64,000 bases of DNA, taken from contig CP092821.1 of NCBI GenBank assembly GCA_022530585.1, forward strand, positions 1,025,509-1,089,508, in the 5' to 3' direction. The DNA is from Candidatus Nealsonbacteria bacterium DGGOD1a (GTDB lineage: Bacteria > Patescibacteriota > Minisyncoccia > Minisyncoccales > UBA5738). A model generated the notes under the pieces. That model had not been told where the DNA came from and did not search any database. It saw nothing but the letters and a program-made list of their open reading frames with translations. A program made the translations under genes and the position numbers. Of this stretch, positions 19,432-54,628 are shown in pieces. Numbering within the stretch: position 1 is the first letter of the stretch; every line of letters begins with the position of its first letter.

Positions 19432-19503
19432 TGCCCCTGCCAGGAATCGAACCTGGATCTAGAGCTTAGGAGTCTCTCGTTCTATCCATTGAACTATAGG
19501 GGC
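19432..19503 (-). tRNA. tRNA-Arg(CCU)
   Basis: Hand fold: GCCCCTA..GTTCAATGGATAGAAC, anticodon loop CTCCTAA, T-arm CCAGG-TTCGATT-CCTGG. Two non-canonical pairs lower confidence. Confidence 0.7.
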
Positions 19504-39804: not shown

Positions 39805-39805
39805 A

Positions 39806-40198: not shown

Positions 40199-40217
40199 AT
40201 TGCTCTATCTCAACATT

Positions 40218-41728: not shown

Positions 41729-41742
41729 GTCAAATCAAAAAA

Positions 41743-42024
41743 TTAAAAAACTGGTATCTGCTCTTTCATTATTTGATCCTTTAATAAGGGATGCAAACAT
41801 TCATACTCAACCAAATCAACTTTTCTTTTTAATTTTTCCTCGAGCTCGAATTCCAACCGGATAAAACCAAGCAAGCTCATCTTTTCCGGAACTTCCACCA
41901 AAATATCGATGTCGCTGTTTTTCTTTTCTTCCCCTCGCGCGAACGAACCGAAAACCGCGGCTTTTTTGACCCCGTTTCTTTTCAGAATTTCAACAATTTT
42001 TTCCCGAGTTCGCTTGTTTATCAT
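41743..42024 (-). CDS. mntA: MntA-type nucleotidyltransferase antitoxin, second copy
   Basis: 93 aa with AAVFGSFARGEEKKNSDIDILVEV. Confidence 0.75.
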   Translation of the reverse strand: MINKRTREKIVEILKRNGVKKAAVFGSFARGEEKKNSDIDILVEVPEKMSLLGFIRLEFELEEKLKRKVDLVEYECLHPLLKDQIMKEQIPVF

Positions 42025-42148: not shown

Positions 42149-42221
42149 GCCCCCGTAGTTTAATGGATAAAATACAAGGTTGCGGACCTTGAGACTACAG
42201 GTTCGATTCCTGTCGGGGGCA
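42149..42221 (+). tRNA. tRNA-Arg(GCG)
   Basis: Hand fold: acceptor GCCCCCG/CGGGGGC, anticodon stem CAAGG/CCTTG, loop TTGCGGA, T-arm ACAGG-TTCGATT-CCTGT, discriminator A. Confidence 0.8.
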
Positions 42222-43716
42222 CAAGAATCAAATTTTCGGGTAAAAGCCCGATTTTTTGTTGCGCGGCGGCTAACGCCGCCCATTCATTTCGGGGCTCCCC
42301 GCTGATTTTTTTGGCGGAAAGCGAGAGGTTCGAGCCGAAGATTTTTTTGGCGGATGATTTTTTGGCGGAAAGATCGGAATTTTCGGCGATTTCCCGCATA
42401 TTTTGAGCGTCTTTTAACCATTGGCGGAGAGGTTCGAGCCAATTATTGCCGCCCTTCTCGATTTCGATGATTTTTTCCTCCAGCGTTCTTTTGGCGGAAA
42501 TAAGCTTGGCTTTTTCTGCGCGGTAGGTTTCCCGCTCGATGTCCTGTTCAAGGTAAGCGTCCAAAAGCCGCTGGATTTTGATTTTCAGATTTTCCAGTTC
42601 CGCCCGCGATTTTTCAATGAAGCTGGCCGAAGATTGGGCCAGCTTCCGCTCGTCTCCGTTTGCCATTGCAAACAGCCGCTTTGCCCAGTTTTCGGACAAA
42701 GCGAATTTTTCAATTTCTTGCGACAGCTGGCGGTCGAGTTCTTCTTCCCTGATAAACGGTTCGGAGCATTTGACGGATTTTCTTTTTCTGGTGCAGCGGT
42801 AATAGACATATTCGTGGGTGTTGCCGTTTTTCTGGTGTTTGGTTTTTCTTTCGGCGGTGATCGCCATTCCGCAAGTGCCGCACCGGATCAAGCCGCAAAA
42901 CGGCCGGGGGTCGTTTTGGGGCTGGCGATGGATATGCGTCCTTTGTTGCAATACTTCCTGCACTTTGTCGAAAAGCTTCTTCGGGATAATCTGCTCGTGT
43001 TTGCCTTCGTGAAGTTCGCCGGAATAGCGGAACAATCCGCAATAGAACGGATTGGAAAGGATAAACGATACCCTCGAAAGGTGGAGAGGTTTCTTGCTTT
43101 TGGCGGTTATGCCGTTTTCGGCGAAAAAGGCGGCAATGTCTTCAAGGCGTTGGTCGCCTTGGGAATACATCTCAAAAGCCTGCCGCACTATCTTTGATCT
43201 TTTCCGGTCAACGACAACCTTTTTTATCCGCACATCGTTTAAATAGCCCAATGGCGCGATGCCCGGATAATCGCCGCGCCGCACTTTTTCACGCTGGCCG
43301 CGCTTGGTATTCGCGCTTAAATCCAAAATGTATTGGTTGGCCATTCCAAACTCTACGCTCATCATCAATACATTATCGGCGGGGAGATAGCCGCGGTCGT
43401 TGGTTTGGATGTGCTGGATGATTCCTCTTTGCAAAAACCAGCTTATCTGCCCGCCGTCAATCGGATTGCGGGCCAGCCGGTCAAGCTTCCAGCAGATTAT
43501 GCCTTGCGCTTCGCCCTTTTCAATCCGCGCCAGCATATCGGAAAATATCGGTCGGCCCGGAACCTTAGCTGATTGTTTTTCAACAAAGGTTTCAACGATA
43601 TGCAGGTTTTCCCGTTTGGCAAAAGCGCGCAACTCGGAAAGCTGCGCGGCGATGGATAAAACCTGCCGGTCTTCGGTATCGGTGGATTTGCGGGCGTATA
43701 GGAAATAATTAAACAT
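42160..43716 (-). CDS. Large serine recombinase
   Basis: 518 aa with an N-terminal resolvase domain (YARKSTDTEDRQVLSIAAQ), a recombinase domain, a Zn-ribbon (CGLIRCGTCG...YYRCTRKRKSVKC) and a coiled coil. The last ~20 codons are antisense to tRNA-Arg. Confidence 0.85.
   Translation of the reverse strand: MFNYFLYARKSTDTEDRQVLSIAAQLSELRAFAKRENLHIVETFVEKQSAKVPGRPIFSDMLARIEKGEAQGIICWKLDRLARNPIDGGQISWFLQRGIIQHIQTNDRGYLPADNVLMMSVEFGMANQYILDLSANTKRGQREKVRRGDYPGIAPLGYLNDVRIKKVVVDRKRSKIVRQAFEMYSQGDQRLEDIAAFFAENGITAKSKKPLHLSRVSFILSNPFYCGLFRYSGELHEGKHEQIIPKKLFDKVQEVLQQRTHIHRQPQNDPRPFCGLIRCGTCGMAITAERKTKHQKNGNTHEYVYYRCTRKRKSVKCSEPFIREEELDRQLSQEIEKFALSENWAKRLFAMANGDERKLAQSSASFIEKSRAELENLKIKIQRLLDAYLEQDIERETYRAEKAKLISAKRTLEEKIIEIEKGGNNWLEPLRQWLKDAQNMREIAENSDLSAKKSSAKKIFGSNLSLSAKKISGEPRNEWAALAAAQQKIGLLPENLILVPPTGIEPVVSRSATLYFIH
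42222..42368. repeat. Inverted repeat IR-1, left copy (recombinase 3-prime end)
   Basis: The reverse complement recurs at 45398-45552. The first ~100 nt next to the tRNA are identical by eye. Confidence 0.8.
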
Positions 43717-43772
43717 GGTGCTATAATTATTGTAATTTATCTGTAATTTATTATATATAAAATTTTATAAGT

Positions 43773-43982
43773 ATGTCAAAAGAATCGTCAATTATTGGAA
43801 AAGCTATCCGAAAATATAGACAAGAAAAGAATATGTCGCAGGAAGCTTTGGCGCGGGCGGCCAATTTATCCCTTCCTACCGTGGTTAAGATTGAATCCGG
43901 GGAAACGCCGAATCCAGGTATCGAAACAGTGAAAAAAATTGCGGACGCACTTAGCGTGCTACTTGATGATTTAATGAAATAA
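43773..43982 (+). CDS. XRE-family HTH regulator
   Basis: 69 aa with IRKYRQEKNMSQEALARAANLSLPTVVKIESG. Confidence 0.85.
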   Translation: MSKESSIIGKAIRKYRQEKNMSQEALARAANLSLPTVVKIESGETPNPGIETVKKIADALSVLLDDLMK

Positions 43983-43986
43983 AATT

Positions 43987-44451
43987 ATGGATAAAAAAAT
44001 AGTCAGAGAAAAATTAAGTTTGCTTAGAGGAACTATTATTTCAGACGCAACTGTGATAGAGAGAGCACTTGGCTGGAAATTAAGAGTATATTTTTTCCCA
44101 AAAACCAATCAACAAGCCGCTGATTTTCTTTATTATATTATAGAAACATCCCACTTCAGTTTTGATAAAAAAATTTCACTTTATGAACAAATTCCATATT
44201 TTAAGAAATTAAAACAATACTCAAAAATAAAAACCTCTTTGAGGTTTGTTCAACAATTAAGAAACGCGTTAGCTCATTGGGATTTAGATGAAAAAATGAG
44301 CAACGAGAATGAAATTATAATTTATAATCCGAACACTTTTAAAAAAATAAAACTAAATGATGAGATAATGGAGAAATTTCAAGAACACGAAAAAATTATT
44401 TTGAAAGCGTTTGGTTGGACGCAAACTTTTAAAGAAAAATATGGAAAATAA
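43987..44451 (+). CDS. HEPN-like (MtlR/Abi-like) protein with R-x4-H motif
   Basis: 154 aa, all-helical by composition. LRFVQQLRNALAHWDLD contains R-N-A-L-A-H. Starts 4 nt after the XRE gene. Confidence 0.5.
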   Translation: MDKKIVREKLSLLRGTIISDATVIERALGWKLRVYFFPKTNQQAADFLYYIIETSHFSFDKKISLYEQIPYFKKLKQYSKIKTSLRFVQQLRNALAHWDLDEKMSNENEIIIYNPNTFKKIKLNDEIMEKFQEHEKIILKAFGWTQTFKEKYGK

Positions 44452-44845
44452 ACAAAAACATCTCGAATTTATACAAGGAATCATTGCCAGAATGGCTGGT
44501 AATTTATTTTTCCTAAGGGGTTGGACGATTACTTTGATAGGTGCATTGCTCGCGTTATTTTCAAAAAACAATAGTCCTGATTATGTTTTTTATTTTCTTA
44601 TAGTTGTTGTCCTTATTTTTTGGATTTTGGATGGATATTTTCTTTCACAAGAAAGATCGTACCGTGATTTATACAATTATGTTAGAAAATTAAAAGAGGA
44701 AGAAATCGATTTTTCAATGGAAATTAGCGAATATCAAAAATACAAGAAAAACACTTTGATTTATTCAATGTTTTCTTCAACTCTTTTAATTTTCTATCTA
44801 CCGCTTGTCGGAGCGGCAATCTATATTTTATTTAAAATAAAGTAA
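44441..44845 (+). CDS. Three-helix membrane protein (possible SLATT-like effector)
   Basis: 134 aa from the ATG at 44441, overlapping the upstream stop by 11 nt. Hydrophobic helices WTITLIGALLALF, YVFYFLIVVVLIFWILDGYFL and LLIFYLPLVGAAIYILF. Confidence 0.55.
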   Translation: MENKQKHLEFIQGIIARMAGNLFFLRGWTITLIGALLALFSKNNSPDYVFYFLIVVVLIFWILDGYFLSQERSYRDLYNYVRKLKEEEIDFSMEISEYQKYKKNTLIYSMFSSTLLIFYLPLVGAAIYILFKIK

Positions 44846-44849
44846 AAAT

Positions 44850-45353
44850 ATGGCAACAAAAAGACAAGTTTTTTATAGTTTTCATTACAAGCCAGATTGT
44901 TGGCGTGCTTCAATGGTGCGCAACATTGGTGCTATTGAAGGAAATAAGCCAGCTACTGATAATGATTGGGAAACAATCACAAGCCGAGGAGATGAAGCAA
45001 TAAAGAAATGGATAAAAGATCAGATGCAGTATCGTTCATGTACGGTTGTCCTTGTCGGTAATAAAACTGCCAATAGGAAATGGATAAATTATGAAATAGT
45101 GAGGTCGTGGGATGCAGGAATGGGTGTTGTTGGTATATATATTCACGGATTGAAAAATAGCCAAGAATTAATTTCTGAAAAAGGAGATAATCCTTTTGAT
45201 TATATAACCCACGGAAAAACCAAGAAAAAATTGTCTACGATTGTAAAATGTTACAATCCATCAGGAACCAATAGCAAAGAAAGATACGATTGGATTTCCC
45301 GAAATATAGCAAATGCAGTTGAAGAAGCAATAAAGATTAGGGATAATAATTAA
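44850..45353 (+). CDS. TIR-like (DUF1863 / ThsB-like) protein
   Basis: 167 aa with QVFYSFHYKPD, TVVLVGNKTANRKWINYEIVRS, GVVGIYIHGLKN and GDNPFDYI. Resembles Thoeris ThsB-type TIR-like proteins as I recall them. Confidence 0.65.
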   Translation: MATKRQVFYSFHYKPDCWRASMVRNIGAIEGNKPATDNDWETITSRGDEAIKKWIKDQMQYRSCTVVLVGNKTANRKWINYEIVRSWDAGMGVVGIYIHGLKNSQELISEKGDNPFDYITHGKTKKKLSTIVKCYNPSGTNSKERYDWISRNIANAVEEAIKIRDNN

Positions 45354-45397
45354 CCTTGTATATTTAGAAAAACTACATACATAACTGATTTTTAATT

Positions 45398-45552
45398 CCG
45401 CCAAAAAATCATCTGCCAAAAAATCTTCGGCATTTCGTTCTCGATCTTTTCGCTTTCCGCCAAAAAAATCAGCGGGGAGCCCCGAAATGAATGGGCGGCG
45501 TTAGCCGCCGCGCAACAAAAAATCGGGCTTTTACCCGAAAATTTGATTCTTG
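45398..45552 (+). pseudogene. Inverted repeat IR-1, right copy: orphan 3-prime fragment of a serine recombinase gene
   Basis: Plus-strand frame ..SAKKISGEPRNEWAALAAAQQKIGLLPENLILV matches the C-terminus of the 42160-43716 product. No upstream recombinase body. Confidence 0.6.
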
Positions 45553-45753
45553 TGAATCTTTATGATTCAGCTCGAACTTACTTTAGCAAAAATTGTTGAC
45601 TTTGGACAGGGTGAGGGGGCGGGTTATGCCCCCGACTAAGCTTCGCTTGCCCCTCCAAACTGCTGTTTTCCGGGGCGGCGCTCGCAAAGGGGCAGCCGGG
45701 CCCGAATCGGGGCTTGGCCAACGCATTTTAGCCGCAAGGTGGGGGGTAAAAGG
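45550..45753. repeat. ~204-bp terminal inverted repeat, left copy
   Basis: The reverse complement recurs at 54167-54369, with only a few mismatches seen (for example CCGGGGCGGCGCTCGC versus CCGGGTCTGCGCTCGC) and a 1-nt indel. GC-rich with several internal hairpins. Confidence 0.85.
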
Positions 45754-45919
45754 GGGTATTTCGCATAAAAAAATATAAATCGAAGCCAGCAGGCTTCGCA
45801 AATTTTGATAATTTGATCGTTTTTTTGTTTCGGATTAAAACATCAAATAATATGGACAAAAATTTCCATTCGAATTAATATTCTTTCTAGAATATTTAAA
45901 ACAGAGGAGGTGAAAAGAC

Positions 45920-46012
45920 ATGGAGCTTAATCCGTTGCTTATTGTTGCAATAATTATAATAATTATTGCGGGATACGCGATCGGTGAGTTGAAAAAGAGA
46001 GAATATTTATAG
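45920..46012 (+). CDS. 30-aa hydrophobic peptide
   Basis: GAGGAGG lies 8 nt upstream of the ATG. Product MELNPLLIVAIIIIIIAGYAIGELKKREYL. Followed by the hairpin GCCAGC-ATTTCAAA-GCTGGC plus a T-run (46018-46046). Confidence 0.45.
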   Translation: MELNPLLIVAIIIIIIAGYAIGELKKREYL

Positions 46013-46076
46013 ACCTTGCCAGCATTTCAAAGCTGGCTTTTTGTTTTAAAAATTTACTTATTGCGCGATTAAATCC

Positions 46077-46130
46077 TTGACACAGATTTATTGATTTGAT
46101 AAATTCTAAATTAGCTTACCGCTCGGTAAG
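46077..46130 (+). promoter_or_regulatory. Sigma70-like promoter plus palindromic operator upstream of the TetR gene
   Basis: TTGACA (46077-46082), a 17-nt spacer, then TAAATT (46100-46105). Perfect palindrome CTTACCG-CT-CGGTAAG at 46115-46130, 2 nt before the ATG. Confidence 0.55.
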
Positions 46131-46132
46131 TA

Positions 46133-46744
46133 ATGACATTTATTAAAACTATGGAAACAATTACAGTCCGATCCGAAGGTGTCGTTGGCGATACCAAAAA
46201 ATATATCATCGGCACGGCTCGACGTCTTTTTTCAAAATACAGTTATTTAGGTGTTTCGATGAGCGATATCGCTAAAAAACTCAATTTTACTAAGGCCGCG
46301 CTTTATTATCATTTTACCGGCAAAGCCGAAATTTACGGGAATGTTCTTGATGAGGTTTTTAGTGATTTAAATTCGCTGATCCTTCAGGCGTTAAACGAAA
46401 AAACGGATGATAAAAAATTGCGCCGGGTAATCACAAGCTATCTTGTTTTTGGCTTGAAAGAAAAAAACCTTGTTAAAGCGCTGGTGTTGAAATTATCACC
46501 CAAGGAACGCGATACAACCGAGCACATCGCCCGTTTAAGAGAAAGGGTCGCTGGCTTGATTGAGCCTATAGTCAAAGAGGCTTTAGTGGACAAAAAATTG
46601 GCGGAAAAAACCGACAGCAAACTTTTGACATCCCTGCTTACCTGCATGATGGACGGGCTGCTTTTGGAATGTTCGTTTCTTGATAAAAAAATCGATCCGG
46701 AAAAAGTATCGGATCAAATAATCAAAATATTATTCCAAAACTAG
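46133..46744 (+). CDS. TetR-family transcriptional regulator
   Basis: 203 aa with N-terminal HTH YLGVSMSDIAKKLNFTKAALYYHF. Confidence 0.85.
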   Translation: MTFIKTMETITVRSEGVVGDTKKYIIGTARRLFSKYSYLGVSMSDIAKKLNFTKAALYYHFTGKAEIYGNVLDEVFSDLNSLILQALNEKTDDKKLRRVITSYLVFGLKEKNLVKALVLKLSPKERDTTEHIARLRERVAGLIEPIVKEALVDKKLAEKTDSKLLTSLLTCMMDGLLLECSFLDKKIDPEKVSDQIIKILFQN

Positions 46745-46759
46745 CGCCGGTAAATTTAT

Positions 46760-47455
46760 ATGTTAAGCATCGTTATTCCCACGTTCAACGAAGAAAAATA
46801 CCTCCCGCGCCTTCTAAAATCAATCGAAAGACAAACCTTTAGGGATTATGAAGTGATTGTCGCCGACAACGATTCAAGCGACTCCACGCGGGCAATTGCG
46901 AAAAGCTTCGGAGCGAAAATTGTTTCCGGCGGAATGCCCGGTCGGGGTCGCAATCAGGGAGCGAAAGCTGCCCGCGGCGAGTGGCTTTTATTTTTGGACG
47001 CTGATGTAGTATTGCCGCCCGATTTCTTGGGAAGAGCCATGACGGAAATCAAAAACAGCGATTTTTCCGTGGCAACATGTTTGATCGATCCGTTAAGCGA
47101 TCGGCGAATCGACAAATTGTTGCATGGTTCGGTGAATCTGTATATGCGGGCGACTAGAAAATTTTTTGCCCACGCGCCGGGATTTTGCATATTTTGCGAA
47201 ATGAAAATCCATCGAAAGTCGGGCGGATTTAACGAAAAAATAAAACTCGGCGAAGACATTGATTATGTCCACCGCCTGAGCAAAATCGCCAAGTTCGGTC
47301 TGCTCCGCAATGTATGTATTCCCGTGTCGGTGCGAAGGCTTGACGAAGACGGCCGGTTCAAAATCGTTGTCAAATACGTTGCCGCCGAAGTACATCTTAT
47401 CTTTTTTGGGCCGATATATTCCGATAAGTTTCATTACACATTCGGCCATCGCTAA
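46760..47455 (+). CDS. Family-2 glycosyltransferase
   Basis: LSIVIPTFNEEKYL, VADNDSSD and FLDADVV (DxD). Confidence 0.8.
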   Translation: MLSIVIPTFNEEKYLPRLLKSIERQTFRDYEVIVADNDSSDSTRAIAKSFGAKIVSGGMPGRGRNQGAKAARGEWLLFLDADVVLPPDFLGRAMTEIKNSDFSVATCLIDPLSDRRIDKLLHGSVNLYMRATRKFFAHAPGFCIFCEMKIHRKSGGFNEKIKLGEDIDYVHRLSKIAKFGLLRNVCIPVSVRRLDEDGRFKIVVKYVAAEVHLIFFGPIYSDKFHYTFGHR

Positions 47456-47500
47456 AATTACGCTTTAAGGACAATTTCAAAAATAACCAAAAATAAAATT

Positions 47501-48835
47501 ATGCCAATGCAAATCAAGAATAACCTTAAGAAAGAAGCAGCTTTGGAAATCTTTCGTATTTTGTCGAAAAGTTCCGATGAAAACATAATCAGATTTGCTG
47601 CCATGGCAGAAACGCTCGCATCCCCGAATTACAAACCGATGATCGGAGCGGTCAGGGATATGTATGAGAAAAAGGGATCGGCCTTGGTTTTGACCAAAAG
47701 GATAATTCACGATGTGGATAAAAGATGCCAGGAAAAATTCCTGGAAAATTTCGTTTTGCCGGAACTACTGGAAAGGCTGGATAAAAGGGAAAAATCATTG
47801 ATTCAGAGATCGGCCGCCCTTTTCACGCTTTTGATTTCCCCCTCAATGAGGTGCACTTTGCATTGCAAGGGATGTTACGCCGAGAATTACAAGAAAGAGG
47901 ACGATCTTCCTTTTAATGTTTTGGACAGGGTTGTTAGTGAGGCCGAAGAAATGGGCGTGGCGTATTTTACCATTTTGGGCGGCGAACCGTTTATTCGGGA
48001 AGATCTTTTCGATCTTTACAAAAAGCATTCGGATTCTTATTTCGTTCCCTACACTAACGGCACGGTGATTACCGATAAAATTGCAAGAAGGTTACTTGAA
48101 GTTGGCAATGTCATGCCGCAATTCAGCGTCGAGGGATTCGAGGAAGATACGGATTTTAGAAGAGGCAAGGGTACTTTCCAAAAAGTAATGCAAGCGATGG
48201 ATATTTTAAAAAAGAATAAAGTTCCATTCGGTTATTCGGTCTGTGTAACTAAGAAAAACGCGGAAGTCGTTATGTCCGACAAATTCGTCGATCTGATGGT
48301 AGATAAGGGAGCGTTAATGGGCTGGTATTTCCTTTACATGCCAGTTTGTGGCGATAAAAACACAGAATTGATGCCGACGCCCGATCAAAGGAATCGTCAA
48401 AGAATCCGCCGTGATTACATCCGGGCCAATAAACCTCTGTTCATAATCGATTTTTGGAACGACGCGCCTTATGTTGGAGGTTGCATTGCCGCAAAGCATT
48501 ATTCCCATGTAACCAATTTCGGCGATGTCGAACCGTGTATTTTTACTCATTTCGCGCAAGCGAATATAAAAAATGTTTCCTTGAAGGACGCGATGGACTG
48601 TGATTTCTTTAAAGAAATAAGAAAACGCCAACCATACAGCCCGAATCTTTTAACGCCCTGTATGTTGATAGACAACCCGCAAGTCAGCCGGGAACTTTGT
48701 CAAACTTGCAAAGTTCGACCAACGCATCCAGGAGCCCAGACCTTAATGAACGAGTTAAAGGGCGACATTGACAGATACTCAATCCAAGTGCACCAGATTT
48801 TTGACAAAATTTGGGAAGATGAACATAAAAAATAG
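47501..48835 (+). CDS. Radical SAM enzyme with C-terminal Cys-rich (SPASM/twitch-like) region
   Basis: 444 aa with the CTLHCKGCYA (CxxxCxxC) cluster motif, GGEPF, and later Cys residues (GGCIAAK, EPCIF, TPCML). Confidence 0.75.
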   Translation: MPMQIKNNLKKEAALEIFRILSKSSDENIIRFAAMAETLASPNYKPMIGAVRDMYEKKGSALVLTKRIIHDVDKRCQEKFLENFVLPELLERLDKREKSLIQRSAALFTLLISPSMRCTLHCKGCYAENYKKEDDLPFNVLDRVVSEAEEMGVAYFTILGGEPFIREDLFDLYKKHSDSYFVPYTNGTVITDKIARRLLEVGNVMPQFSVEGFEEDTDFRRGKGTFQKVMQAMDILKKNKVPFGYSVCVTKKNAEVVMSDKFVDLMVDKGALMGWYFLYMPVCGDKNTELMPTPDQRNRQRIRRDYIRANKPLFIIDFWNDAPYVGGCIAAKHYSHVTNFGDVEPCIFTHFAQANIKNVSLKDAMDCDFFKEIRKRQPYSPNLLTPCMLIDNPQVSRELCQTCKVRPTHPGAQTLMNELKGDIDRYSIQVHQIFDKIWEDEHKK

Positions 48836-48858
48836 TAATAAAATTACGTTATGCAGTT

Positions 48859-49815
48859 ATGCCGAAAGACAAACTAACAAAGCTTTTGGATATAAAATAT
48901 CCGATTATCCAAGGCGGCATGGCCGGAATTTCGGAATCAATGCTGGTGTCGGCAGTGTCTAATGCCGGGGGCTTGGGCGTTATTGGTTCGGGATTTGCGT
49001 CTCCGGAATGGCTGGCCGAAGAAATTAAAAAGACCAAGACGCTTACCGATAAACCGTTCGGGGTGAATTTATTGATGCAGAATCCCCAAGTTGGCGATTT
49101 GGTTAAAGTGGCTGTTGATGCGAAAGTTCCCGCAATTTTTACGGGTGGCGGGAATCCTTTACCGTTGATGTTCTGTTTAAAAAAAGCGGGAATAAAAATA
49201 ATTCCCGTAGTTCCTTCGGTGAGATTGGCGGTAAAAATGGAGCAGGCGGGAGCGGACGCGGTAGTAGTGGAAGGGCTGGAATCGGGCGGCCATATCGGAG
49301 AAAACACGACCATGTGTTTGGTGCCGCAGGCGGCCCACGCCGTAAAAAACGTTCCGGTTATCGCCGCAGGAGGAATTTGCGACCACAAAACATTCATTGC
49401 CGCTTTGGTTTTGGGGGCTGACGGCGTACAAATGGGGACGCGCTTTTTGGCCTCATGCGAATGCCGAATTCACGAAAATTACAAGAAAGCGGTTATAAAT
49501 GCCAGCGACGAAGATATTATTGTGGTTGCTCGTTCGACCAAACATCCATTACGGTTGATCAAAAACAAATTCGCTGACCGGATTGATAAAATTGAAAGCG
49601 AGAAAATCGATTTGAAAACAGATCGTTTTTCGGGCGCGATGGTTATAAATGGCAATACCGATATGTCGCCGCTGTTATGCGGTATTTGTGCGGGCAGTAT
49701 CCGCCAAATTAAAACTTGCGACGAAATTATCAAAGAAATAGTCGGCGAATCGAATCGGAATCCTAAATTTGTTGATGAATTTATTATGGATTGCCAAAAA
49801 GCTGTTAGCAATTAA
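48859..49815 (+). CDS. FabK-like/NMO-family flavoprotein, paralog of 31327-32268
   Basis: YPIIQGGMAGIS, GADAVVVEGLESGGH and AAGGICDH. Roughly two-thirds identical by eye to the chromosomal copy. Confidence 0.7.
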   Translation: MPKDKLTKLLDIKYPIIQGGMAGISESMLVSAVSNAGGLGVIGSGFASPEWLAEEIKKTKTLTDKPFGVNLLMQNPQVGDLVKVAVDAKVPAIFTGGGNPLPLMFCLKKAGIKIIPVVPSVRLAVKMEQAGADAVVVEGLESGGHIGENTTMCLVPQAAHAVKNVPVIAAGGICDHKTFIAALVLGADGVQMGTRFLASCECRIHENYKKAVINASDEDIIVVARSTKHPLRLIKNKFADRIDKIESEKIDLKTDRFSGAMVINGNTDMSPLLCGICAGSIRQIKTCDEIIKEIVGESNRNPKFVDEFIMDCQKAVSN

Positions 49816-49826
49816 ACATCAAAACT

Positions 49827-50480
49827 ATGGATACACTTGTTTCGATTGCTTCAAGAACGGTTCTTGCCTTTCCGATAAAGAGATTGCTTATCAAGAAAAT
49901 AACCGGCCTAGAAAACATTCCCGAAAAAGGTAACTTTATTCTGGTATCAAATCATTTAAGCCATGTTGATTCTCTCATGTGCGGTTATTTGATGACACCG
50001 CGCAAATTTACTTTCTTAAGCCAAACCGATCAATATTCCGGGTTGAAAAAAGTTTTGCGAAATACCGTCTATTGTTGGGGCGGTGTGATTCCATTTAACC
50101 GCAAAGATTCTTTATCCAAGAAACAGGCAATTGCGACCGGAATAACAAAATTGCGCGAAGGTTATCGTCTTGTAATTTATCCCGAAGGCGGTAGATCGTA
50201 CGATGGGATAATGCGCGAATTCAAACCCGGCGTAGCCGTAATACACTTGGAAAGCGGTGCGCCGGTGCTTCCGATTGCGCTCAAAGGAACACGCGAAATA
50301 CTGCCGCCTCACGGCAGATTTAAAATAACGAAATCGGCGGAAATCACTATCGGGAGAATATTGGATTTTTCAAAGGAAAGGAAACAAGCAGTGAAATTGG
50401 ATAAAAAATCAGAAGAATATCGCAAAATTTGCGATAATATCGCCAAAAAAATAGAAAATGAAGTTCGGGGTTTATTGTAA
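49827..50480 (+). CDS. plsC: PlsC-like acyltransferase, third paralog
   Basis: NHLSHVDS, YPEGGRS and PVLPIAL. Same fabK-plsC order as the chromosomal cluster. Confidence 0.8.
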   Translation: MDTLVSIASRTVLAFPIKRLLIKKITGLENIPEKGNFILVSNHLSHVDSLMCGYLMTPRKFTFLSQTDQYSGLKKVLRNTVYCWGGVIPFNRKDSLSKKQAIATGITKLREGYRLVIYPEGGRSYDGIMREFKPGVAVIHLESGAPVLPIALKGTREILPPHGRFKITKSAEITIGRILDFSKERKQAVKLDKKSEEYRKICDNIAKKIENEVRGLL

Positions 50481-50547
50481 TTTTTTAAGTAACGATATTA
50501 AAAAATCTCGAAAGTGCGGAATTTTACAATAAGAAAAATTTTTCAAA

Positions 50548-51399
50548 GTGGCAAAGCGAGTATTCAAAAAATTCGAGAGAAGCCAAACCCCGCCGAAATT
50601 CCGAATCGGCGCGGTAGATATGCAGATACTAAACGACCTGACCTCTTACCGGTTCTTGGACACAAAACAGATTCTAACGCTCCATCCCGACTATTCGTCG
50701 CGGACGGTGCGCTCAAGGCTGCAGCTTCTTTTCCATGCCGGATATGTGGATCGGCCCCGCGGCCAGTTTTCGTATTACGAACACCCGCATTTGATTTATT
50801 CTCTGGCCAAAAAAGGGGCCGCGCTGGTTTCTCAAAATAAGGGACTGCCGATTATGACCGACAGGCCCCATGAAATGGGAGTGTCTTTTATGCGCCATTC
50901 CCTGATGATTTCCAATTTTCAAGCGGCTCTGCGCCTTGCGCTCAAGAAAGCCGAAGGCTTCAAGCTGGCGGTATGGCGCGATCTGGGCGCGATTGACGCG
51001 GTGCAATGCGAAGGCCAAAGGCTGCCGATTGCGCCGGACGCATTTTTTACAATCGAATCCGACGACTATTTCCTGCATTTCTTTTTCGAGGCCGACCGCT
51101 CGACAATGGCCGCCGACAGAATGCTCAACAAATTCAAAGGATACTGGAACTGGAAGCTGGAGGGCGGGCACAAGCGGAAATTGGATATTCCCAATTTCCG
51201 CGTCCTGACGGTCTGCCTTTCCGAAGAGCGGGCGGAACGCTTGCGGCTTATCGCCGCGAAAGCGAACGGGCGGGAAACCGGAAGCGATACATTCTGGTTT
51301 GCCTGCGAAAAGTTGTACGGCTTGGAAAATCCCGACAGCATTTTGACGCCAATTTGGAGATCGGCGAAGGGCGGCAGTCCGCGCCACTTGCTCGAATAA
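50548..51399 (+). CDS. Replication-relaxation family protein
   Basis: 283 aa. IGAVDMQILNDLTSYRFLDTKQILTLHP..RSRLQLLFHAGYVDR is the typical N-terminal wHTH of the Replic_Relax family. GTG start. Confidence 0.6.
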   Translation: MAKRVFKKFERSQTPPKFRIGAVDMQILNDLTSYRFLDTKQILTLHPDYSSRTVRSRLQLLFHAGYVDRPRGQFSYYEHPHLIYSLAKKGAALVSQNKGLPIMTDRPHEMGVSFMRHSLMISNFQAALRLALKKAEGFKLAVWRDLGAIDAVQCEGQRLPIAPDAFFTIESDDYFLHFFFEADRSTMAADRMLNKFKGYWNWKLEGGHKRKLDIPNFRVLTVCLSEERAERLRLIAAKANGRETGSDTFWFACEKLYGLENPDSILTPIWRSAKGGSPRHLLE

Positions 51400-51434
51400 A
51401 GGCCGATGGCGTTTTTTTATGTAAAACAAAAAAA

Positions 51435-52001
51435 ATGGCGAAAGTAAAAGAAAGCGAAATCGTCGAAGAGTGGAGCGTTTTGATCGAAGGCGCGCAAGGC
51501 CATCAGCAGGAATTTTACCAGCTCATTGAAAACCGATTGGACGAGCTGCAGCCGCCCGCGCTTTCGGTTGCGCAAGAAAAAGTCTACCCTTCGCTAATAA
51601 GAAGAATGAAAGGCGACGGCAAGCTGTTCTTGATCATCAAGAGCAAGTATTTCGACGGCTATGTCGTTAATGTTTGCGCCCAAGAGTACGGCAAGCAATT
51701 GCTCATCGCTTGGTATCTTACCCAGCGCGTCAGCAAGTTTATGCAGTTTATGGCCGCCATGCCGGGCTTTGTCGTCGTCGCGATCTACCCGGTATATCTT
51801 TTGATACAGCTTTACGACAAGATCACGAACCGCCGCGTTACGCTGGAAAATATGGACTTGTTCGACCGGCAGGAATTGAGCGCGTTCGCCGGAACCGTCC
51901 ATCATTGCGTATTGTTCGGATCGGAGAACGTCGCCGATGCCGTGAATTTCGATTTCTCAAAGGTTGACCGCAAAACAAGGGGTTTCCTGAACCTCGCATA
52001 A
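51435..52001 (+). CDS. Hypothetical protein with central hydrophobic hairpin
   Basis: 188 aa from the ATG at 51435 (MAKVKESEIVEEW...). The track ORF 51006.. extends through the upstream gene and was trimmed. Confidence 0.5.
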   Translation: MAKVKESEIVEEWSVLIEGAQGHQQEFYQLIENRLDELQPPALSVAQEKVYPSLIRRMKGDGKLFLIIKSKYFDGYVVNVCAQEYGKQLLIAWYLTQRVSKFMQFMAAMPGFVVVAIYPVYLLIQLYDKITNRRVTLENMDLFDRQELSAFAGTVHHCVLFGSENVADAVNFDFSKVDRKTRGFLNLA

Positions 52002-52005
52002 CGCA

Positions 52006-53547
52006 ATGTCCGAAGAACGGAACCGCCGGGCCTTGGCCCCTCTCAAGGCGTTTTTTAAAACTATGCTTGGAAAAAACGACAAGCCGCTTGAATCGGAAAC
52101 GAAAGCGGCGTATTTGGAATATCCGCTTTGGCGGTTTCCGATTGAGAGGGGCCGGATGGGCTTGGGCTGGGTTGACGGCGCGCTGAATCCGGCGACCGGC
52201 CTTGTGGGCAACATCAAGGGAATCGATACGAAATACCGGAGCACCCATTTTTACGCCGTGGGCGCGTCCGGTTCGGGCAAGTCGAAATTCCTTGAATCGC
52301 TTATCATTCAAGACATCCTCCAAGGCGAGGGCTTCGGCGTTATCGATCCGCACGGCGATCTGATCGAGGACATAAAAGGCTGGCTGTATTTTTGGACGCA
52401 AAGGGATTTTAAAAAGGAGATTGTTTTGATCGACCCGACGGATTCGGAGAATACGGCCAGCTTCAATCCGCTGGAAAGGGTGGACGGCATTCCGCCGGAA
52501 CGCTTGGCCGGACAATTGGTGGAAGCGTTCAAAAAGATATGGGCGGACGCTTGGGGCGAAAGGATGGCCGACATTATGCGCAACTCCTTGATCGCTTTGG
52601 CGGAAAACAATTTGACGCTTTTGGAATTGCCCCTGCTTTTGACGGAGCCGGAGGCCCGCAAAAAGATTTTGCAGAACGTCAAAAGCGTTTCCTGCCGCCA
52701 GCGTTTCAAATACTTTGAATCGCTGTCGGCCCATACTTGGCGCGAATGGCTGGAATCGACGCTTAACAAGGTGGACGCGTTCCTTTCCGATCCGGCGATC
52801 CGCCAGATATTCGCTTCTCCTAAAAGCTCTTTCAATCTGCGCGACATAATGGATAACAAAAAAATCCTGCTGGTGAATTTGAACAAAGGCAGATTGGGCG
52901 ACAGCGCGAATCTGCTGGGGGCTTTGCTGGTAAGCAAAATCAAGATGGCGGCGTTTTCAAGAACCGACATCCCGCAAACCGACCGCCAGCCGTTCTACCT
53001 CTACATCGACGAGTTCCAAAACTTCGCGACCAACAGCTTTATCGAGATATTGAGCGAAGCCAGAAAATACAAGCTTTCCCTCATACTGGCCCACCAGAAC
53101 CTAAGCCAGCTTTCCGACGATCTGCGGGATTCCATCCTTGCCAACTGCGGGATACAAGCCTGTTTTAGGGTGAACCGCCCGGACGCGCAGCTGCTGGCCC
53201 GCGAATTGATGGGGCCGATCTACCGCCACGTTCCGGGTTGGGAGTTGAACATCCAGTTTTTGCAGGAAGTCCCGCCCCGCTGCTGCTATGTCGCCAACAA
53301 GCCGGAAAACGGCATTGTCGGCATCCGCACTCTGCCCGTGCCTTCCCCGTGGGAATTTATGAGCTATGCCGACAACCAATGGGACGAAGAAACCTTCAAT
53401 TCCCTTATACGGGAAATCGGGATCGGCGCGGGCTACACCCGGAGCAGGGAGGAAATCGAGCGGGAGTGCATTGAACGCGCCAGCGGCTTGATGGCCGGGG
53501 AAGAAGAGGAGGACTTTAAGCACCATAAGAGCGACGCCGAAGCGTAA
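52006..53547 (+). CDS. TraD/VirD4/HerA-like P-loop ATPase (coupling-protein-like, no TM)
   Basis: 513 aa with Walker A AVGASGSGKSKF, Walker B FYLYIDEFQNF, and ARKYKLSLILAHQNLSQL. Confidence 0.7.
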   Translation: MSEERNRRALAPLKAFFKTMLGKNDKPLESETKAAYLEYPLWRFPIERGRMGLGWVDGALNPATGLVGNIKGIDTKYRSTHFYAVGASGSGKSKFLESLIIQDILQGEGFGVIDPHGDLIEDIKGWLYFWTQRDFKKEIVLIDPTDSENTASFNPLERVDGIPPERLAGQLVEAFKKIWADAWGERMADIMRNSLIALAENNLTLLELPLLLTEPEARKKILQNVKSVSCRQRFKYFESLSAHTWREWLESTLNKVDAFLSDPAIRQIFASPKSSFNLRDIMDNKKILLVNLNKGRLGDSANLLGALLVSKIKMAAFSRTDIPQTDRQPFYLYIDEFQNFATNSFIEILSEARKYKLSLILAHQNLSQLSDDLRDSILANCGIQACFRVNRPDAQLLARELMGPIYRHVPGWELNIQFLQEVPPRCCYVANKPENGIVGIRTLPVPSPWEFMSYADNQWDEETFNSLIREIGIGAGYTRSREEIERECIERASGLMAGEEEEDFKHHKSDAEA

Positions 53548-54062
53548 CCGGCGAAAGGAGGCCGCCCGGCCTTGCGTTCTTTGACGGCAGGAAAAGTGCG
53601 TTTTAAAAGTCCCGCCCCAAAGCGGGATTTTTAAAAGCCGGGCGGCCTCCTTGAGCACCCGAGCCGGAAATTTTCGGAAAGGCTTTTGCGGCTGAGCAAA
53701 AGGCTTTCGGGAAAAGCGGAGGAGCAAAAAGACATAGAAACCGGAGGAAAAAATATCAAAGTCCGCTGATAAGCGGTATTTGATATATGGCGAAGCCGGT
53801 TTTGCCGGAGGTTTCGTTAAGTGGCTTTTTGCGGGGGAGCGGTTTCCGGCGGCCCCTGCCTGCTTGCTTTCCGAATTGGGCAGAGAGTTTGGCATTGCGA
53901 GGGCAGCCGCGGAAAGGCTCAAAGCTTGGAACAGCCGCAAACCAGAGGTGCTGTTTCCCTGAAAGCCCGGAGCGGGCGGCGCACCGCCCGCGCAGGGGAA
54001 ACAGCACCGGAACAAAGGCGCAGGCCTTGGATTAGGCACTGGCTTGGCTCGAATCGGGGCTT

Positions 54063-54150
54063 AAAAACTCTGCATTTACTCTGCAACTCCTTGGTTAAAA
54101 AGTCTGCATTCTAGATTGCAGACTTATTGCAGAGTAAATGCAGAGTTTTT
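54063..54150. repeat. Perfect 24-bp-arm palindrome with inner 8-bp hairpin
   Basis: AAAAACTCTGCATTTACTCTGCAA (54063-54086) / TTGCAGAGTAAATGCAGAGTTTTT (54127-54150). Inner AGTCTGCA-TTCTAGAT-TGCAGACT. Confidence 0.85.
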
Positions 54151-54166
54151 CTCTGGCCAACGCACA

Positions 54167-54369
54167 CCTTTTACCCCCACCTTGCGGCTAAAATGCGTTG
54201 GCCAAGCCCCGATTCGGGCCCGGCTGCCCCTTTGCGAGCGCAGACCCGGAAAACAGCAGTTTGGAGGGGCAAGCGAAGCTTAGTCGGGGGCATAACCCGC
54301 CCCCTCACCCTGTCCAAAGTCAACAATTTTTGCTAAAGTAAGTTCGAGCTGAATCATAAAGATTCACAA
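54167..54369. repeat. ~204-bp terminal inverted repeat, right copy
   Basis: Reverse complement of 45550-45753. Confidence 0.85.
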
Positions 54370-54628
54370 ATTTTGCGAACAAAATTTGCAGTAATTAGTA
54401 ATTTGTACTTAGTAATTAGAAGAACACAAAATACCCGGGTTACCAAAAGCAAAATTTCCCAAATTACCAATTACCCACACAAATTACAAATTCCGCGCCC
54501 TCCGGCGCGGTTTTTTAGTACATAACCGCGATATTATTCGTCACCCATAGCGCCTTCATATCTTCCACTTATCTAAACGAAAAAGAACTCAAAAAAATAA
54601 GAGTCCCTGGAGCGCTCGGCAATCCCAT

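Follow-up and report, generated by a model that had tools for sequence, protein, structure and literature searches.

A probable integrative island beside a tRNA-Arg gene in a Patescibacteria-type genome, with a second, inverted attP

Introduction

Elements and prophages moved by large serine recombinases (LSRs), such as A118, SPbeta, phiC31, Bxb1 and the SCCmec Ccr elements, share a Resolvase, Recombinase and Zn-ribbon architecture, short attP and attB with a tiny common core, a 5-bp shift of the outer motif between the two sites, and hybrid attL and attR. IMEs and AICEs combine a site-specific recombinase with a relaxase-like protein and one DNA-translocating ATPase, which in AICEs is by definition of the FtsK/TraB type. 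Yeast 2-micron-type plasmids (FLP/FRT) have two unique segments and two long inverted repeats, each repeat holding the target of the plasmid's own tyrosine recombinase. In SSV1-type archaeal integrases and in mycobacteriophage integration-dependent immunity, integration alters the product of a gene that spans attP. Inverted attP pairs were found in the literature only for engineered cassette exchange (e.g. MiMIC landing sites), where the cassette lies between two inverted attP sites and the artificial construct acts on paired attB sites.

The island described here has all of the LSR features just listed, but it targets the extreme 3′ end of a tRNA gene, whose T loop supplies the half-site motif, and its attP lies inside the recombinase ORF and is accompanied by a second, intact, inverted attP. 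Its recombinase is only ~25% identical to phage integrases, and no recombination directionality factor was identified for the element. It has the IME/AICE set of recombinase, relaxase-like protein and single ATPase, and the present copy shows no complete set of mating-pore genes, while its ATPase is VirD4/TraD-like, its Replic_Relax and coupling proteins are cargo of the present copy, and its host is of the Patescibacteria type. Its predicted circle resembles the 2-micron plasmid in having two unique segments and two long inverted repeats, each holding a target of its own enzyme; here, however, the enzyme is a serine recombinase, the sites are attP for chromosomal integration, and flipping and autonomous replication would be hypothetical. 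As in the SSV1-type and mycobacteriophage cases, integration would alter an attP-spanning gene, here that of the recombinase itself (a serine enzyme), although only the last ~14 codons would be swapped. Unlike the MiMIC-type constructs the arrangement is natural and uses a single attB. We found no published description of a layout with a spare inverted attP.

Extent and insertion sites

We conclude that positions 42222-54367 of the window (the whole 64-kb stretch of DNA analysed) are very probably a single integrative and probably mobilisable island of 12,146 nt, placed directly 3′ of tRNA-Arg(GCG) by the LSR encoded at its left end (Table 1). The same 12,146-nt element, 99.5-100% identical, is found at tRNA-Arg(GCG), tRNA-Arg(CCG) and tRNA-Arg(TCT) in independent contigs, each insertion having both junctions within one contig. 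Its sequence is identical up to ...GATTCAC (54367) in these three different chromosomal contexts, where the B′ flanks are unrelated to each other (AAATTTTGCG, TTTTAAACGA and CATATAAAAT) and only a CAC core is common to the sites. A further copy, 98% identical in the recombinase region, lies at tRNA-Arg(CCT). At least three different tRNA-Arg genes, and probably four, have recently received the element. GC skew is reversed over 42-54 kb and regains its chromosomal sign from ~54 kb. Metagenome contigs contained no exact match to an empty attB for the GCG site; the excised circular junction is indistinguishable from the internal attP by short sequence.

Table 1. Features of the island and its flanks (window coordinates)
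Feature	Position	Strand	Remarks
tRNA-Arg(GCG)	42149..42222	+	ARAGORN, Rfam; T-arm and acceptor 3′ end form the attB B half-site
Large serine recombinase, 518 aa	42160..43716	-	Pfam Resolvase, Recombinase, Zn_ribbon_recom
attL crossover core CACAA	42220..42224	+	CAC (42220-42222) alone common to all sites; three-junction comparison
X arm, left copy	42220..42334	+	P′ side of attP; diverged extension to ~42374
Coding content of left X arm		-	Last ~38 conserved recombinase codons
Terminator-like sites in left X	42236-42251, 42263-42280	+	Hairpins reading from tRNA into element
Promoter-like site for recombinase, TTGACA-18-TATAAT	43750..43779	-	12/12 consensus match; putative function
XRE-type HTH protein, 69 aa	43773..43982	+	Pfam HTH_3; PADLOC HTH/control-protein models
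Segment a cargo, total	43987..45353	+	Starts with 154-aa ORF
PDC-M50A-like membrane protein	44411-44845	+	PADLOC E = 1.6e-45
PDC-M50B/ThsB-like TIR protein	44850-45353	+	PADLOC E = 4.2e-65 / 9.3e-70; Pfam ThsB_TIR
X′ diverged extension	from 45396
X′ arm	45440..45554	+	Non-coding internal copy of recombinase 3′ end; P′ side of internal attP
Internal attP core TTGTG	45550..45554	+	Reverse complement of CACAA at both ends
Y arm, left copy	45550..45773	+	attP P arm with GTTCG motif; remainder GC-rich hairpins
Hydrophobic 30-aa peptide ORF (MELNPLLIVAIIIIIIAGYAIGELKKREYL)	45920..46012	+	Gene call in other assemblies too
Segment b cargo operon	46133..50480	+	TetR, GT2 glycosyltransferase, radical SAM/SPASM, FabK-like (NMO) enoyl reductase, PlsC-type acyltransferase
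Mobilisation module	50548..53547	+	Pfam PF13814, PF02534, PF12696, PF10412
Replic_Relax protein	50548-51399	+
188-aa ORF	51435-52001	+
VirD4/TraD-like coupling protein	52006-53547	+	T4SS coupling-protein Pfam families above cut-offs
Non-coding GC-rich, palindrome-rich stretch	53548..54145	.	Perfect 24-nt inverted pair 54063-54086 / 54127-54150
Y′ arm, right copy	54146..54369	-	attR P arm, true right end of element
attR crossover core CACAA	54365..54369	+	CAC (54365-54367) alone common to all sites
attB B′ flank	54370..54520	+	Bidirectional terminator-like hairpin 54493-54510

Two abutting pairs of inverted repeats

The order of parts is tRNA(B) / X - a - X′ / Y - b - Y′ / B′. The Y arms are 224 nt long and 94% complementary without gaps (repeat search), and contain a 204-nt core of 98.5% identity (45550-45753 against 54369-54167, E = 3e-99, blastn within the 64-kb window) whose copies differ by 2 substitutions and one 1-nt indel, in agreement with a preliminary description of this DNA. 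That description lacked the second pair, X (115 nt, 97%), which is prolonged, with divergence, to ~160 nt. X ties the Y repeats to the tRNA-Arg gene and the recombinase: the left X copy starts at the 3′ end of tRNA-Arg(GCG) and includes the 3′ end of the recombinase gene, and X′ meets the left Y arm exactly, with a 5-nt overlap that is the internal core. X and X′ are identical over the ~103 nt nearest the core; beyond that come a run of substitutions and a length difference.

Of the three junctions, B/X is attL, Y′/B′ is attR, and X′/Y joins P arm, core and P′ arm into a complete, inverted attP. The P-arm side of attP is Y, of which attR and the internal attP have one copy each; the P′ side is X, which doubles as the recombinase gene 3′ end. 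The core is CACAA at either end of the island and TTGTG at the internal junction, and this inversion of the internal core excludes two separate elements in tandem.

The recombinase and its C-terminal tail

Among solved structures, the recombinase comes closest to the A118 and SPbeta integrases. Its final 19 codons run antisense to the tRNA gene, and the crossover point falls within its ORF. Joining X′ to Y gives the recombinase the tail NLYDSARTYFSKNC (codons 45555-45596, stop 45597-45599). This X′-to-Y tail is 12-18 codons long in 78 of 92 distinct elements (median 14, consensus xLYDxxRTYFxxNx); in the integrated form, tails run from 2 to 124 codons (interquartile range 11-41). Y encodes a conserved 14-codon recombinase tail, so integration would exchange that tail.

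The T-loop GGTTCGA of tRNA-Arg(GCG) lies 19-20 nt from the junction. Measured from the junction, the GTTCG motif of the recombinase family sits 5 nt farther out in the P arm than on the tRNA side at 55 of 63 loci, and 4 nt farther out at seven more. This offset matches the published rule for LSR attP and attB, by which the zinc-ribbon-domain motif of attB sits 5 bp nearer to the centre (PMC3783163), and the comparison presented here shows that the tRNA T-loop motif serves the family as outer half-site motif. The P′ arm (X) does not read as a mirror of the P arm, which would make this attP unusually asymmetric for an LSR site. The promoter-like site of the recombinase overlaps the start of the divergent HTH gene.

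Relatives of the element

Our family set comprises 160 loci that encode recombinases related to that of the island; nearly all carry a Patescibacteria label. The X pair is present in 113 of them, and the layout is seen in the single-contig chromosomes OY970354.1 and OY970358.1. Downstream sequence suffices in 129 loci, and in 106 of these the recombinase 3′ end directly adjoins a tRNA gene, the tRNAs spanning 28 anticodon types. The attP-duplicating layout appears common to over a hundred CPR relatives. A Y pair strictly abutting X was found in 10 loci (with a 3-5 nt overlap in eight) and a looser one in ~10 more. Some 30 loci with 3-9.5 kb upstream of X have no strictly abutting second Y, ~10 of them having the looser pair; where the strict outer Y is missing, either segment b extends beyond the stored flank or not every member has the outer copy.

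Over the 90 nt nearest the core, X is a median 98.9% identical within an element and 86.7% identical to the nearest other element, which suggests that the arms undergo concerted evolution near the core. Segment b has no gene conserved across relatives and holds restriction-modification systems, OLD, GmrSD and metabolic genes. By tblastn, Replic_Relax and the coupling protein occur in only a handful of other family loci.

Role of the spare attP

The excised circle would bear two inverted attP-bearing repeats of ~340 bp each, parting recombinase segment a from cargo segment b. Integration would split the attP copy located at the recombinase 3′ end and put antisense-tRNA codons in place of the Y-encoded tail; excision would restore the conserved 14-codon tail and the downstream hairpin region, both encoded by Y. 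Given this tail swap, the recombinase is probably altered or down-regulated when integrated. The hairpin and T-run elements of X and Y point away from the core and probably terminate transcription entering the element. Spread from cell to cell would probably use the relaxase and coupling protein in the present copy, genes that most relatives do not have. We favour the reading that the spare inverted attP preserves, within the integrated element, an entire recombinase 3′ end together with a usable attP, and that it turns segments a and b into cassettes that can be inverted or exchanged.

A different view, which we think rather unlikely, is that the repeats serve mainly for DNA inversion, in the manner of the yeast 2-micron plasmid or a shufflon. 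Inversion of a between X and X′ would reconnect the recombinase with the Y-encoded tail and so switch it on, and flipping in the circle could raise copy number or shuffle cassettes. The architecture agrees with this: two unique segments are parted by inverted repeats that hold the recombinase target, the arms evolve in concert near the core, and the conserved tail is lost on integration while a spare inverted copy is retained. Two related elements, L008 and L010, also carry a in opposite orientations beside the same tRNA cluster, and L154 is another candidate for the flipped orientation. Yet the recombinase abuts the tRNA in 106 loci against these two opposite-orientation candidates (L010 and L154), both of which stop within X′ and may reflect a wrong path through the assembly graph, and all reliable copies of the element have one internal orientation. 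No LSR is known to recombine attP with another attP, with attL or with attR, and attP x attP events are unexpected under published LSR rules, so flipping would need host homologous recombination. More broadly, contigs L010, L154, L127 and L193-L196 hint at an inverted a or b, or at a recombinase between two intact attPs; wrong turns through the perfect part of the repeat could explain them, and L196 has Ns exactly at the junction.

Other explanations of the repeats

That the repeat encodes a structured RNA, as the preliminary description suggested, and is duplicated because two RNA gene copies are needed, now looks improbable. Y is GC-rich and 74-78% conserved in close relatives with a few compensatory pairs, and in other family members it has long hairpins whose stems, read from single-sequence folds, differ in sequence yet pair. 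On the other hand, folding energies are no better than those of shuffled sequence (z = -0.78 and +0.09), Rfam has no match in the window or in eight relatives, the alifold covariation term is unfavourable (+1.34, from five distinct sequences), and hairpins in several other family members are followed by T-runs, as in terminators. The first ~45 nt of Y, moreover, are coding sequence and P arm.

We consider it very improbable that the Y arms enclose an autonomous 8.8-kb element, whether plasmid-like, transposon-like or derived from a linear replicon, with 204-bp termini and the recombinase outside, as first proposed. Long inverted repeats do flank a relaxase, a coupling protein and a palindromic non-coding stretch, but the mobile unit is the 12,146-nt island, which includes the recombinase and has the left Y arm internal: in three or four independent insertions the ends are identical, at the tRNA and at ...GATTCAC, and the recombinase moves too. 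The left Y arm is bordered by X′ in every copy and never by host DNA, no target-site duplication surrounds the 8.8-kb segment, and relatives carry unrelated cargo between their Y arms. Rather than transposon, Tn7-like or linear-replicon termini, the arms are each the P-arm side of an LSR attP and hold its motif.

Assembly error, which the preliminary description had named as a possible refutation, is a scarcely credible source of the repeats, for example through a fold-back contig or a chimera of the integrated and excised forms. Repeat-induced misassemblies do occur around the element (a palindromic a-b-a′ contig, L193/L194, and the Ns of L196), but the Y arms differ by the substitutions and the indel given above, distal X has diverged in sequence and length, and a single-attP element present both integrated and as a circle offers no inverted repeat to collapse. 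The same order is found in >20 contigs that come from different samples and different record sets; among them are k127 and k141 contigs, whose k exceeds the longest perfectly identical stretch. The layout also recurs in the 113 diverged relatives, single-contig chromosomes among them. Contig LQYC01000131.1, from a different record, spans segment a with both X arms. The ends of 54 family contigs fall within 160 nt outside X, as expected of a real repeat.

Gene content

The genes listed between the Y arms by the preliminary description are all present, along with the ~600-bp palindrome-rich non-coding stretch, and as it had stated the annotated content there includes no recombinase. Its comparison with integrative elements holds for the combination of a serine recombinase, Replic_Relax and a TraD/VirD4-like ATPase in a CPR-type genome; the AICE analogy fails on the translocase. 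The coupling protein matches the NCBIfam VirD4-like CD1115 family at E = 1e-15, below the cut-off, and FtsK_SpoIIIE only at E = 0.008 (16 bits against a 24-bit cut-off). From its place beside the relaxase and coupling-protein genes, the non-coding stretch is a candidate oriT or other cis site. The XRE-type HTH protein is a candidate regulator: its gene is divergent from that of the recombinase, and homologues adjoin the recombinase in 15 other loci. The segment b cargo operon was annotated from Pfam and NCBIfam; its TetR-GT2-NMO-PlsC genes recur in L007 and L044, two relatives in which the radical SAM gene is absent from the set.

Boundaries of the moving unit

The island has the layout tRNA, X-a-X′, Y-b-Y′, host flank, in which X/X′ and Y/Y′ are pairs of inverted repeats, segment a carries a large serine recombinase (LSR) gene and segment b carries cargo. 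Its features are listed in the table.

Features of the island and its surroundings, with the junctions of its complete insertions. In the insertion rows a slash marks the junction between tRNA gene or flank and element.
Feature	Window position	Detail
tRNA-Arg(CCT), unoccupied	19431-19503 (minus)	3′ end ...CCTGGCAGGGGCAC/TGCACTAATCG
MNT/HepT-thiolase block	39385-42024	directly left of the tRNA-Arg target
tRNA-Arg(GCG), target	42149-42222	
LSR gene	42160-43716 (minus)	
X (left copy)	42220-42334	115 nt
Moving unit	42222-54367	12,146 nt
X hairpin, example	42236-42251; mirrored at 45538-45523	TCGGGTAAAAGCCCGA-TTTTTTG, directly after the tRNA
PDC-M50A/B pair	44411-45353	in segment a
X′ (right copy)	45440-45554	115 nt
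Y (left arm)	45550-45773	224 nt
Radical SAM/SPASM gene	47501-48835	in segment b
Inverted pair around second palindrome	54063-54150	AAAAACTCTGCATTTACTCTGCAA and TTGCAGAGTAAATGCAGAGTTTTT
Y′ (right arm)	54146-54369	224 nt
Y1_Tnp transposase gene	about 57088-57609	L169:9083-9542
Left junction (attL)		GGGGG-CACAA-GAATC
Middle junction (internal attP), reverse complement reading		GATT-CACAA-GAATC
Right junction (attR)		GATT-CACAA-ATTTTG
Insertion at tRNA-Arg(GCG): window and 273-kb JGI contig		left CTGTCGGGGGCA/CAAGAATC; right GATTCAC/AAATTTTGCG
Insertion at tRNA-Arg(CCG): ERZ922796 k127_10846, NAPDCCLC_10000151		left CTGTCGGGCGCA/CAAGAATC; right GATTCAC/TTTTAAACGA
Insertion at tRNA-Arg(TCT): ERZ27315036 k141_408776		left CTGCCAGGGGCA/CAAGAATC; right GATTCAC/CATATAAAAT

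Other copies were located by exact-protein look-up with the coupling protein, the TetR regulator and the TIR protein. The element occurs in more than 20 contigs from many samples, hydrocarbon-culture metagenomes among them, at 99.5-100% nucleotide identity over more than 8 kb. Three versions, at different tRNA-Arg genes, have both junctions in single contigs, and since they share the same element ends and the same length the moving unit is the whole island, recombinase included. The Y repeats are not the outer ends of a transposon or insertion sequence, including the Tn7-like ends to which the preliminary description had likened them: the left arm is internal in every copy, the actual ends are the tRNA gene and the right Y arm, and no target-site duplication was found past a 3-nt core. 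Linear-plasmid or virus termini, the other likeness drawn there, find no favor: each of the contigs found is integrated or broken inside the repeats, with no free linear molecule among them. A further contig (L094), with a recombinase region 98% identical, lies at tRNA-Arg(CCT), where only the tRNA-side junction was recovered. The core common to this copy and the three complete insertions is CAC only. Movement of the element was recent.

The predicted unoccupied GCG attB is GGGGGCAC/AAATTTTGCG, and its pattern GATTCCTGTCGGGGGCACAAATTTTG had no exact match in metagenome contigs. All same-species contigs that reach the GCG site are occupied, and exact-protein look-up with the right-flank ORF returned no record. 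The several distinct insertion sites stand in for empty-site evidence.

The window holds an unoccupied tRNA-Arg(CCT) 3′ end that resembles the sites used by the element, and the flank of L094 is 65% homologous to window 19.7-20.6 kb. Recombination between the internal attP and secondary sites such as this one is conceivable in principle. Two MNT/HepT (nucleotidyltransferase/HEPN RNase) toxin-antitoxin-like pairs surround a thiolase gene left of the target, and an IS200/IS605-type transposase gene lies about 2.7 kb right of the island.

Repeats and junctions

The inverted repeat of about 204 bp is real. A repeat search gave arms that are 94% identical ungapped, and blastn within the window gave 204 nt at 98.5% (E = 3e-99). 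The few mismatches and 1-nt indel seen by eye prove on alignment to be two substitutions and one 1-nt indel. The contents between the Y arms are likewise as first described: a 30-aa peptide ORF, TetR, GT2, radical SAM/SPASM, NMO/FabK-like and PlsC-type genes, Replic_Relax, a 188-aa ORF, a VirD4/TraD-like ATPase and a palindrome-rich non-coding 600 bp, with no recombinase.

A further inverted repeat, X, which that description lacks, came to light when the window was searched with the tRNA region. Its copies are 97% identical and the pair extends, diverging, to about 160 nt. The left copy begins at the final bases of the target tRNA gene and lies within the 3′ end of the LSR gene, and the left Y arm starts exactly where the right X copy stops. 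The middle junction so formed is an unbroken P arm-core-P′ arm site in inverted orientation, with the P arm in Y and the P′ arm in X, and the outer junctions are its halves joined to host DNA. Thus attL and attR are hybrids of attP and attB, and the intact internal attP shows both attP halves joined. A pair of elements that inserted in tandem, each having its own palindromic attP (X′-X and Y′-Y), is excluded because the non-palindromic core at the middle junction is inverted. GC skew is flipped over 42-54 kb of the window.

Recombinase and target recognition

The LSR has, in order, N-terminal resolvase catalytic (PF00239, E = 9e-21), recombinase (PF07508, 4e-16) and zinc-ribbon (PF13408, 1e-12) domains, all above Pfam cut-offs. 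It is far removed from characterised enzymes: it is about 25% identical to phage integrases, matches structures of the A118 and SPbeta integrases at E about 1e-9 to 1e-8, and matches the NCBIfam models CcrB and XisF under cut-off. A viral origin of the element was rejected, as IMG/VR held no recombinase relative. The sole gene that recurrently adjoins the recombinase encodes a 69-aa XRE-type HTH protein (15 other loci).

Aligned on the junction and read up to it, the P-arm consensus is ..AAAAtA.GTTCgagc...gTAtA... and that of the tRNA arm is GGTTCGA.TCC....... Measured from the junction, the shared GTTCG stands 5 nt farther out in attP than it does in the tRNA arm at 55 of 63 loci, and 4 nt farther at seven. 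In serine integrases the zinc-ribbon-domain motif is 5 bp nearer the center in attB than in attP (Rutherford et al., PMC3783163). This LSR family appears to read the universal tRNA T-loop as its outer half-site motif, which would explain the many tRNAs used by closely related enzymes.

Distribution of the family

In species-representative genomes the pattern scans yielded 172 confirmed matches, and in metagenome contigs 526. We took a set of 160 loci from the recombinase scans, 80 from each source, and read the architecture by self-comparison of each locus. Nearly all loci with a named organism are labelled Patescibacteria. An X pair was found in 113 of the 160, and a tRNA gene abuts the recombinase 3′ end in 106 of the 129 with enough downstream sequence, with 28 anticodon types represented. 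Ten loci have a Y pair strictly abutting X, with an overlap of 3-5 nt in eight, and about 10 more have a looser pair. The layout also appears in the single-contig chromosomes OY970354.1 and OY970358.1. Fifty-four contigs start within 160 nt outside X, as expected if Y is a true repeat at which assemblies break. Among loci whose upstream sequence spans 3-9.5 kb, about 30 lack a strictly abutting outer Y. About 10 of these have the looser pair; in the remaining 20 or so, segment b may extend past the stored flank, or an outer copy may not be a feature of every element.

At one locus without a detected tRNA (L049:6459-6746) a group I intron (Rfam RF00028, 82 bits) adjoins the recombinase 3′ end at the expected tRNA position, and the junctions of two others (L038 and L022) have visible tRNA-like 3′ ends where ARAGORN calls no tRNA. 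Intron-containing tRNAs may be targets at some such loci.

Literature searches found no account of serine-integrase islands targeting tRNA 3′ ends in CPR bacteria, and to our knowledge the mobile DNA of Patescibacteria is poorly described. These islands form a widespread class of integrative elements there, bringing defence systems and metabolic genes into tRNA loci. Serine integrases are genome-engineering tools, and the near-identical copies at several tRNA-Arg genes with a common 3-nt core bear on how such enzymes are understood and re-targeted. In CPR genome bins the att repeats also account for many breaks in contigs and for some of the misassemblies that are palindromic.

The recombinase gene crosses attP

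In the window, the integrated form, the recombinase ORF continues past X on the antisense strand of the tRNA gene, and its ending is LILV, PPTGIEPVVSRSATLYFIH and a stop. When X′ is read on into Y, the order expected of an excised circle, the ending is LILV, NLYDSARTYFSKNC and a stop. The two forms of the tail end in ...LILVNLYDSARTYFSKNC (Y-encoded) and ...LILVPPTGIEPVVSRSATLYFIH (antisense tRNA). The attP-form tail is 12-18 codons long in 78 of 92 distinct elements (median 14, interquartile range 14-16), with the consensus xLYDxxRTYFxxNx, while across the family the integrated-form tail has a median of 21 codons (interquartile range 11-41, range 2-124); control frames have an interquartile range of 3-23. 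It follows that the first 45 nt or so of Y code for the end of the recombinase in the excised form and that the tail is swapped on integration. The codons for RTYF, CGAACCTATTTT, read AAAATAGGTTCG on the other strand and are the same bases as the P arm, which means that DNA-level and protein-level constraints overlap here. The recombinase would be altered or silenced upon integration, and its transcript would then run head-on into the tRNA gene, having lost the Y hairpin region.

The spare inverted attP

Without a directionality factor only attP x attB recombines among the site pairings, and attP x attP is disallowed by the canonical serine-integrase rules (PMC3783163). In our full-text literature searches inverted attP pairs turned up only in engineered cassette-exchange systems, and no natural element that has them was found.

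Our preferred reading of the duplicated inverted attP, to which we still give a fairly low probability, is a functional design shared by a large, CPR-specific family of these tRNA-targeting islands. Integration through an attP within the recombinase gene would remove the conserved C-terminal tail and lock the island; the spare attP would keep a complete recombinase 3′ end and a usable site inside the locked island; the full-length recombinase would be rebuilt by excision or by homologous inversion of segment a, a rare event; and segments a and b, being flanked by repeats, would serve as exchangeable cassettes. If true, this would be a natural two-attP serine-recombinase system with directionality control built in. 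That attP falls within the recombinase ORF, and that a spare inverted copy is conserved, suggests a means of controlling directionality or expression. Other possibilities are that the spare attP insulates the segments from each other or is an accessory site for excision.

All reliable copies of the element have one orientation, and in the family 106 loci have the recombinase abutting the tRNA against two candidates for the opposite. Coexisting orientation isomers would mark a 2-micron-like plasmid or an invertible-segment system; the candidate isomers here (L010 and L154 for segment a; L193, L195 and L196 for segment b) can all be explained by repeat-induced misassembly. The same applies to the wider candidates for flipping or for a two-attP circle (L008 compared with L010, L154, L127 and L193-L196), all of which wrong turns through the perfect part of the repeat could yield. 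Contigs with a next to inverted b looked at first like evidence for inversion of b, but we regard them as unreliable. L193 and L194 belong to opposite ends of a single palindromic contig, a-b-a′ (Ga0192804_1000791, 15,458 nt), with the left-arm variant in both Y copies; L196 has Ns exactly at the X′-Y junction (L196:5690-5710); and L195 is apparently of the same sample series, from sample numbering. The palindromic contig and L196 are repeat-induced misassemblies, which calls for caution with orientation isomers from short-read contigs. Evidence for a free circular form was likewise not accepted: the recombinase is joined to Y in six contigs (e.g. L127, L009 and L036), but terminal overlap shows none of them to be circular, and a wrong turn in the perfect part of X could account for all six.

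Sequence features of the arms

Hairpins with T-runs in X read from the core towards segment a. Many relatives have a long GC hairpin in Y, whose stems differ in sequence but still pair, and in several a T-run follows, reading from the core towards b. Our reading is that these are putative inward-facing terminators that would insulate the island.

The suggestion that the repeat encodes a structured RNA was not borne out. Single-sequence folding of the window Y on both strands gave no sign of a specific structure, covariance analysis with RNAalifold on five distinct relatives gave no convincing support, and in Rfam only tRNAs reached the gathering threshold, with nothing over Y at E <= 1. An RNA guide was considered because Y has TGCCCCCGAC, complementary to the tRNA acceptor 3′ strand; CCCCCGAC is unchanged in relatives targeting other tRNAs, and the idea was rejected because the motif does not track the target.

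The core-proximal 90 nt of X are 98.9% identical (median) within an element against 86.7% to the nearest other element, and distal X is only about 76% identical with an 8-10-nt indel; the pattern indicates that the repeat arms evolve in concert. In the tRNA-Arg(CCG) copy L180/L188 (SCADCLC_10008394) the attL X has loop and trailer variants (CGGGCGCAAGCCCG...TTTTTTCGTGC) missing from the internal X′, and L002, another locus, has a similar CGGGCGCAAGCCC variant. Such variants confined to the attL X mean that homogenisation is not instantaneous.

Next to the right arm, on its inner side, an inverted pair of 24 nt with perfect match surrounds a second palindrome. A near-identical AAAAACTCTGCATTCACTCTGC motif follows Y in locus L003, and the stretch matches locus L009 at 92% over 48 nt. 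These palindromes are a possible protein-binding or oriT element, and the region 53548-54145 is a candidate oriT.

Cargo and transfer genes

In the window copy, segment a carries an XRE-type HTH gene together with two genes of a candidate defence system, the PADLOC pair PDC-M50A/B. One product is a membrane protein like PDC-M50A (E = 1.6e-45), the other a TIR protein like PDC-M50B/ThsB (E = 4e-65 / 9e-70). The HTH gene lies upstream of the pair, as does a 154-aa ORF with a weak HEPN-like match. Segment b carries a TetR-regulated lipid/glycosyl operon and the Replic_Relax and coupling-protein module. Cargo in b of 11 relatives comprises restriction-modification systems (Type III and NgoPII), an OLD nuclease, GmrSD, a glycosyltransferase or a multicopper oxidase. 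All-against-all comparison of 55 ORFs from 11 loci found no conserved gene in b, and in many relatives segment a is the recombinase alone. What the family conserves is the recombinase and the att repeats only.

The window copy may be an integrative mobilisable element: it has an integrase, a putative relaxase (Replic_Relax, PF13814) and a VirD4-like protein, and no VirB4-type gene was seen among its ORFs. The proposed likeness to actinomycete integrative and conjugative elements (AICEs) fails on the FtsK/SpoIIIE-type (TraB) dsDNA translocase that defines them and is not found here. The ATPase is above cut-offs for T4SS-DNA_transf, TraG-D_C and TrwB_AAD_bind, and its FtsK_SpoIIIE match (E = 0.008) has 16 bits against a 24-bit cut-off. 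That the transfer genes belong to the cargo of the window copy is an argument against a conjugative label for the family.

Loci L007 and L044, the two closest relatives in cargo, have an otherwise similar TetR-GT2-NMO-PlsC operon that lacks the radical SAM/SPASM gene, which looks like a later insertion. The 30-aa ORF upstream is hydrophobic and, to the eye, unlike a typical precursor of a RiPP (ribosomally synthesised, post-translationally modified peptide).

Compound loci

At L168:4037-7602 a recombinase segment has X on both sides and, beyond X on either side, a tRNA gene, tRNA-Arg(TCT) and tRNA-Val(TAC) in inverted orientation; the arms are 82% identical over 316 nt. This layout is the product expected from recombination of an internal attP with a second attB, or from a double (cassette-exchange-like) insertion.

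Locus L099 (7300-18821) has three different recombinase genes of the superfamily, with identities to the query of 61%, 36% and 39%. The second element ends at tRNA-Leu(GAG), and its Y arm adjoins the first recombinase 3′ end directly; the third gene has its own repeat pairs further along. The arrangement suggests tandem accretion beside a tRNA gene. At L069:2248-15444 four copies of a 350-410-nt repeat, in alternating orientation, surround a single recombinase gene, with tRNA-Leu(GAG) about 160 nt past the final one; att-bearing repeats may form a chain here, more than two in number.
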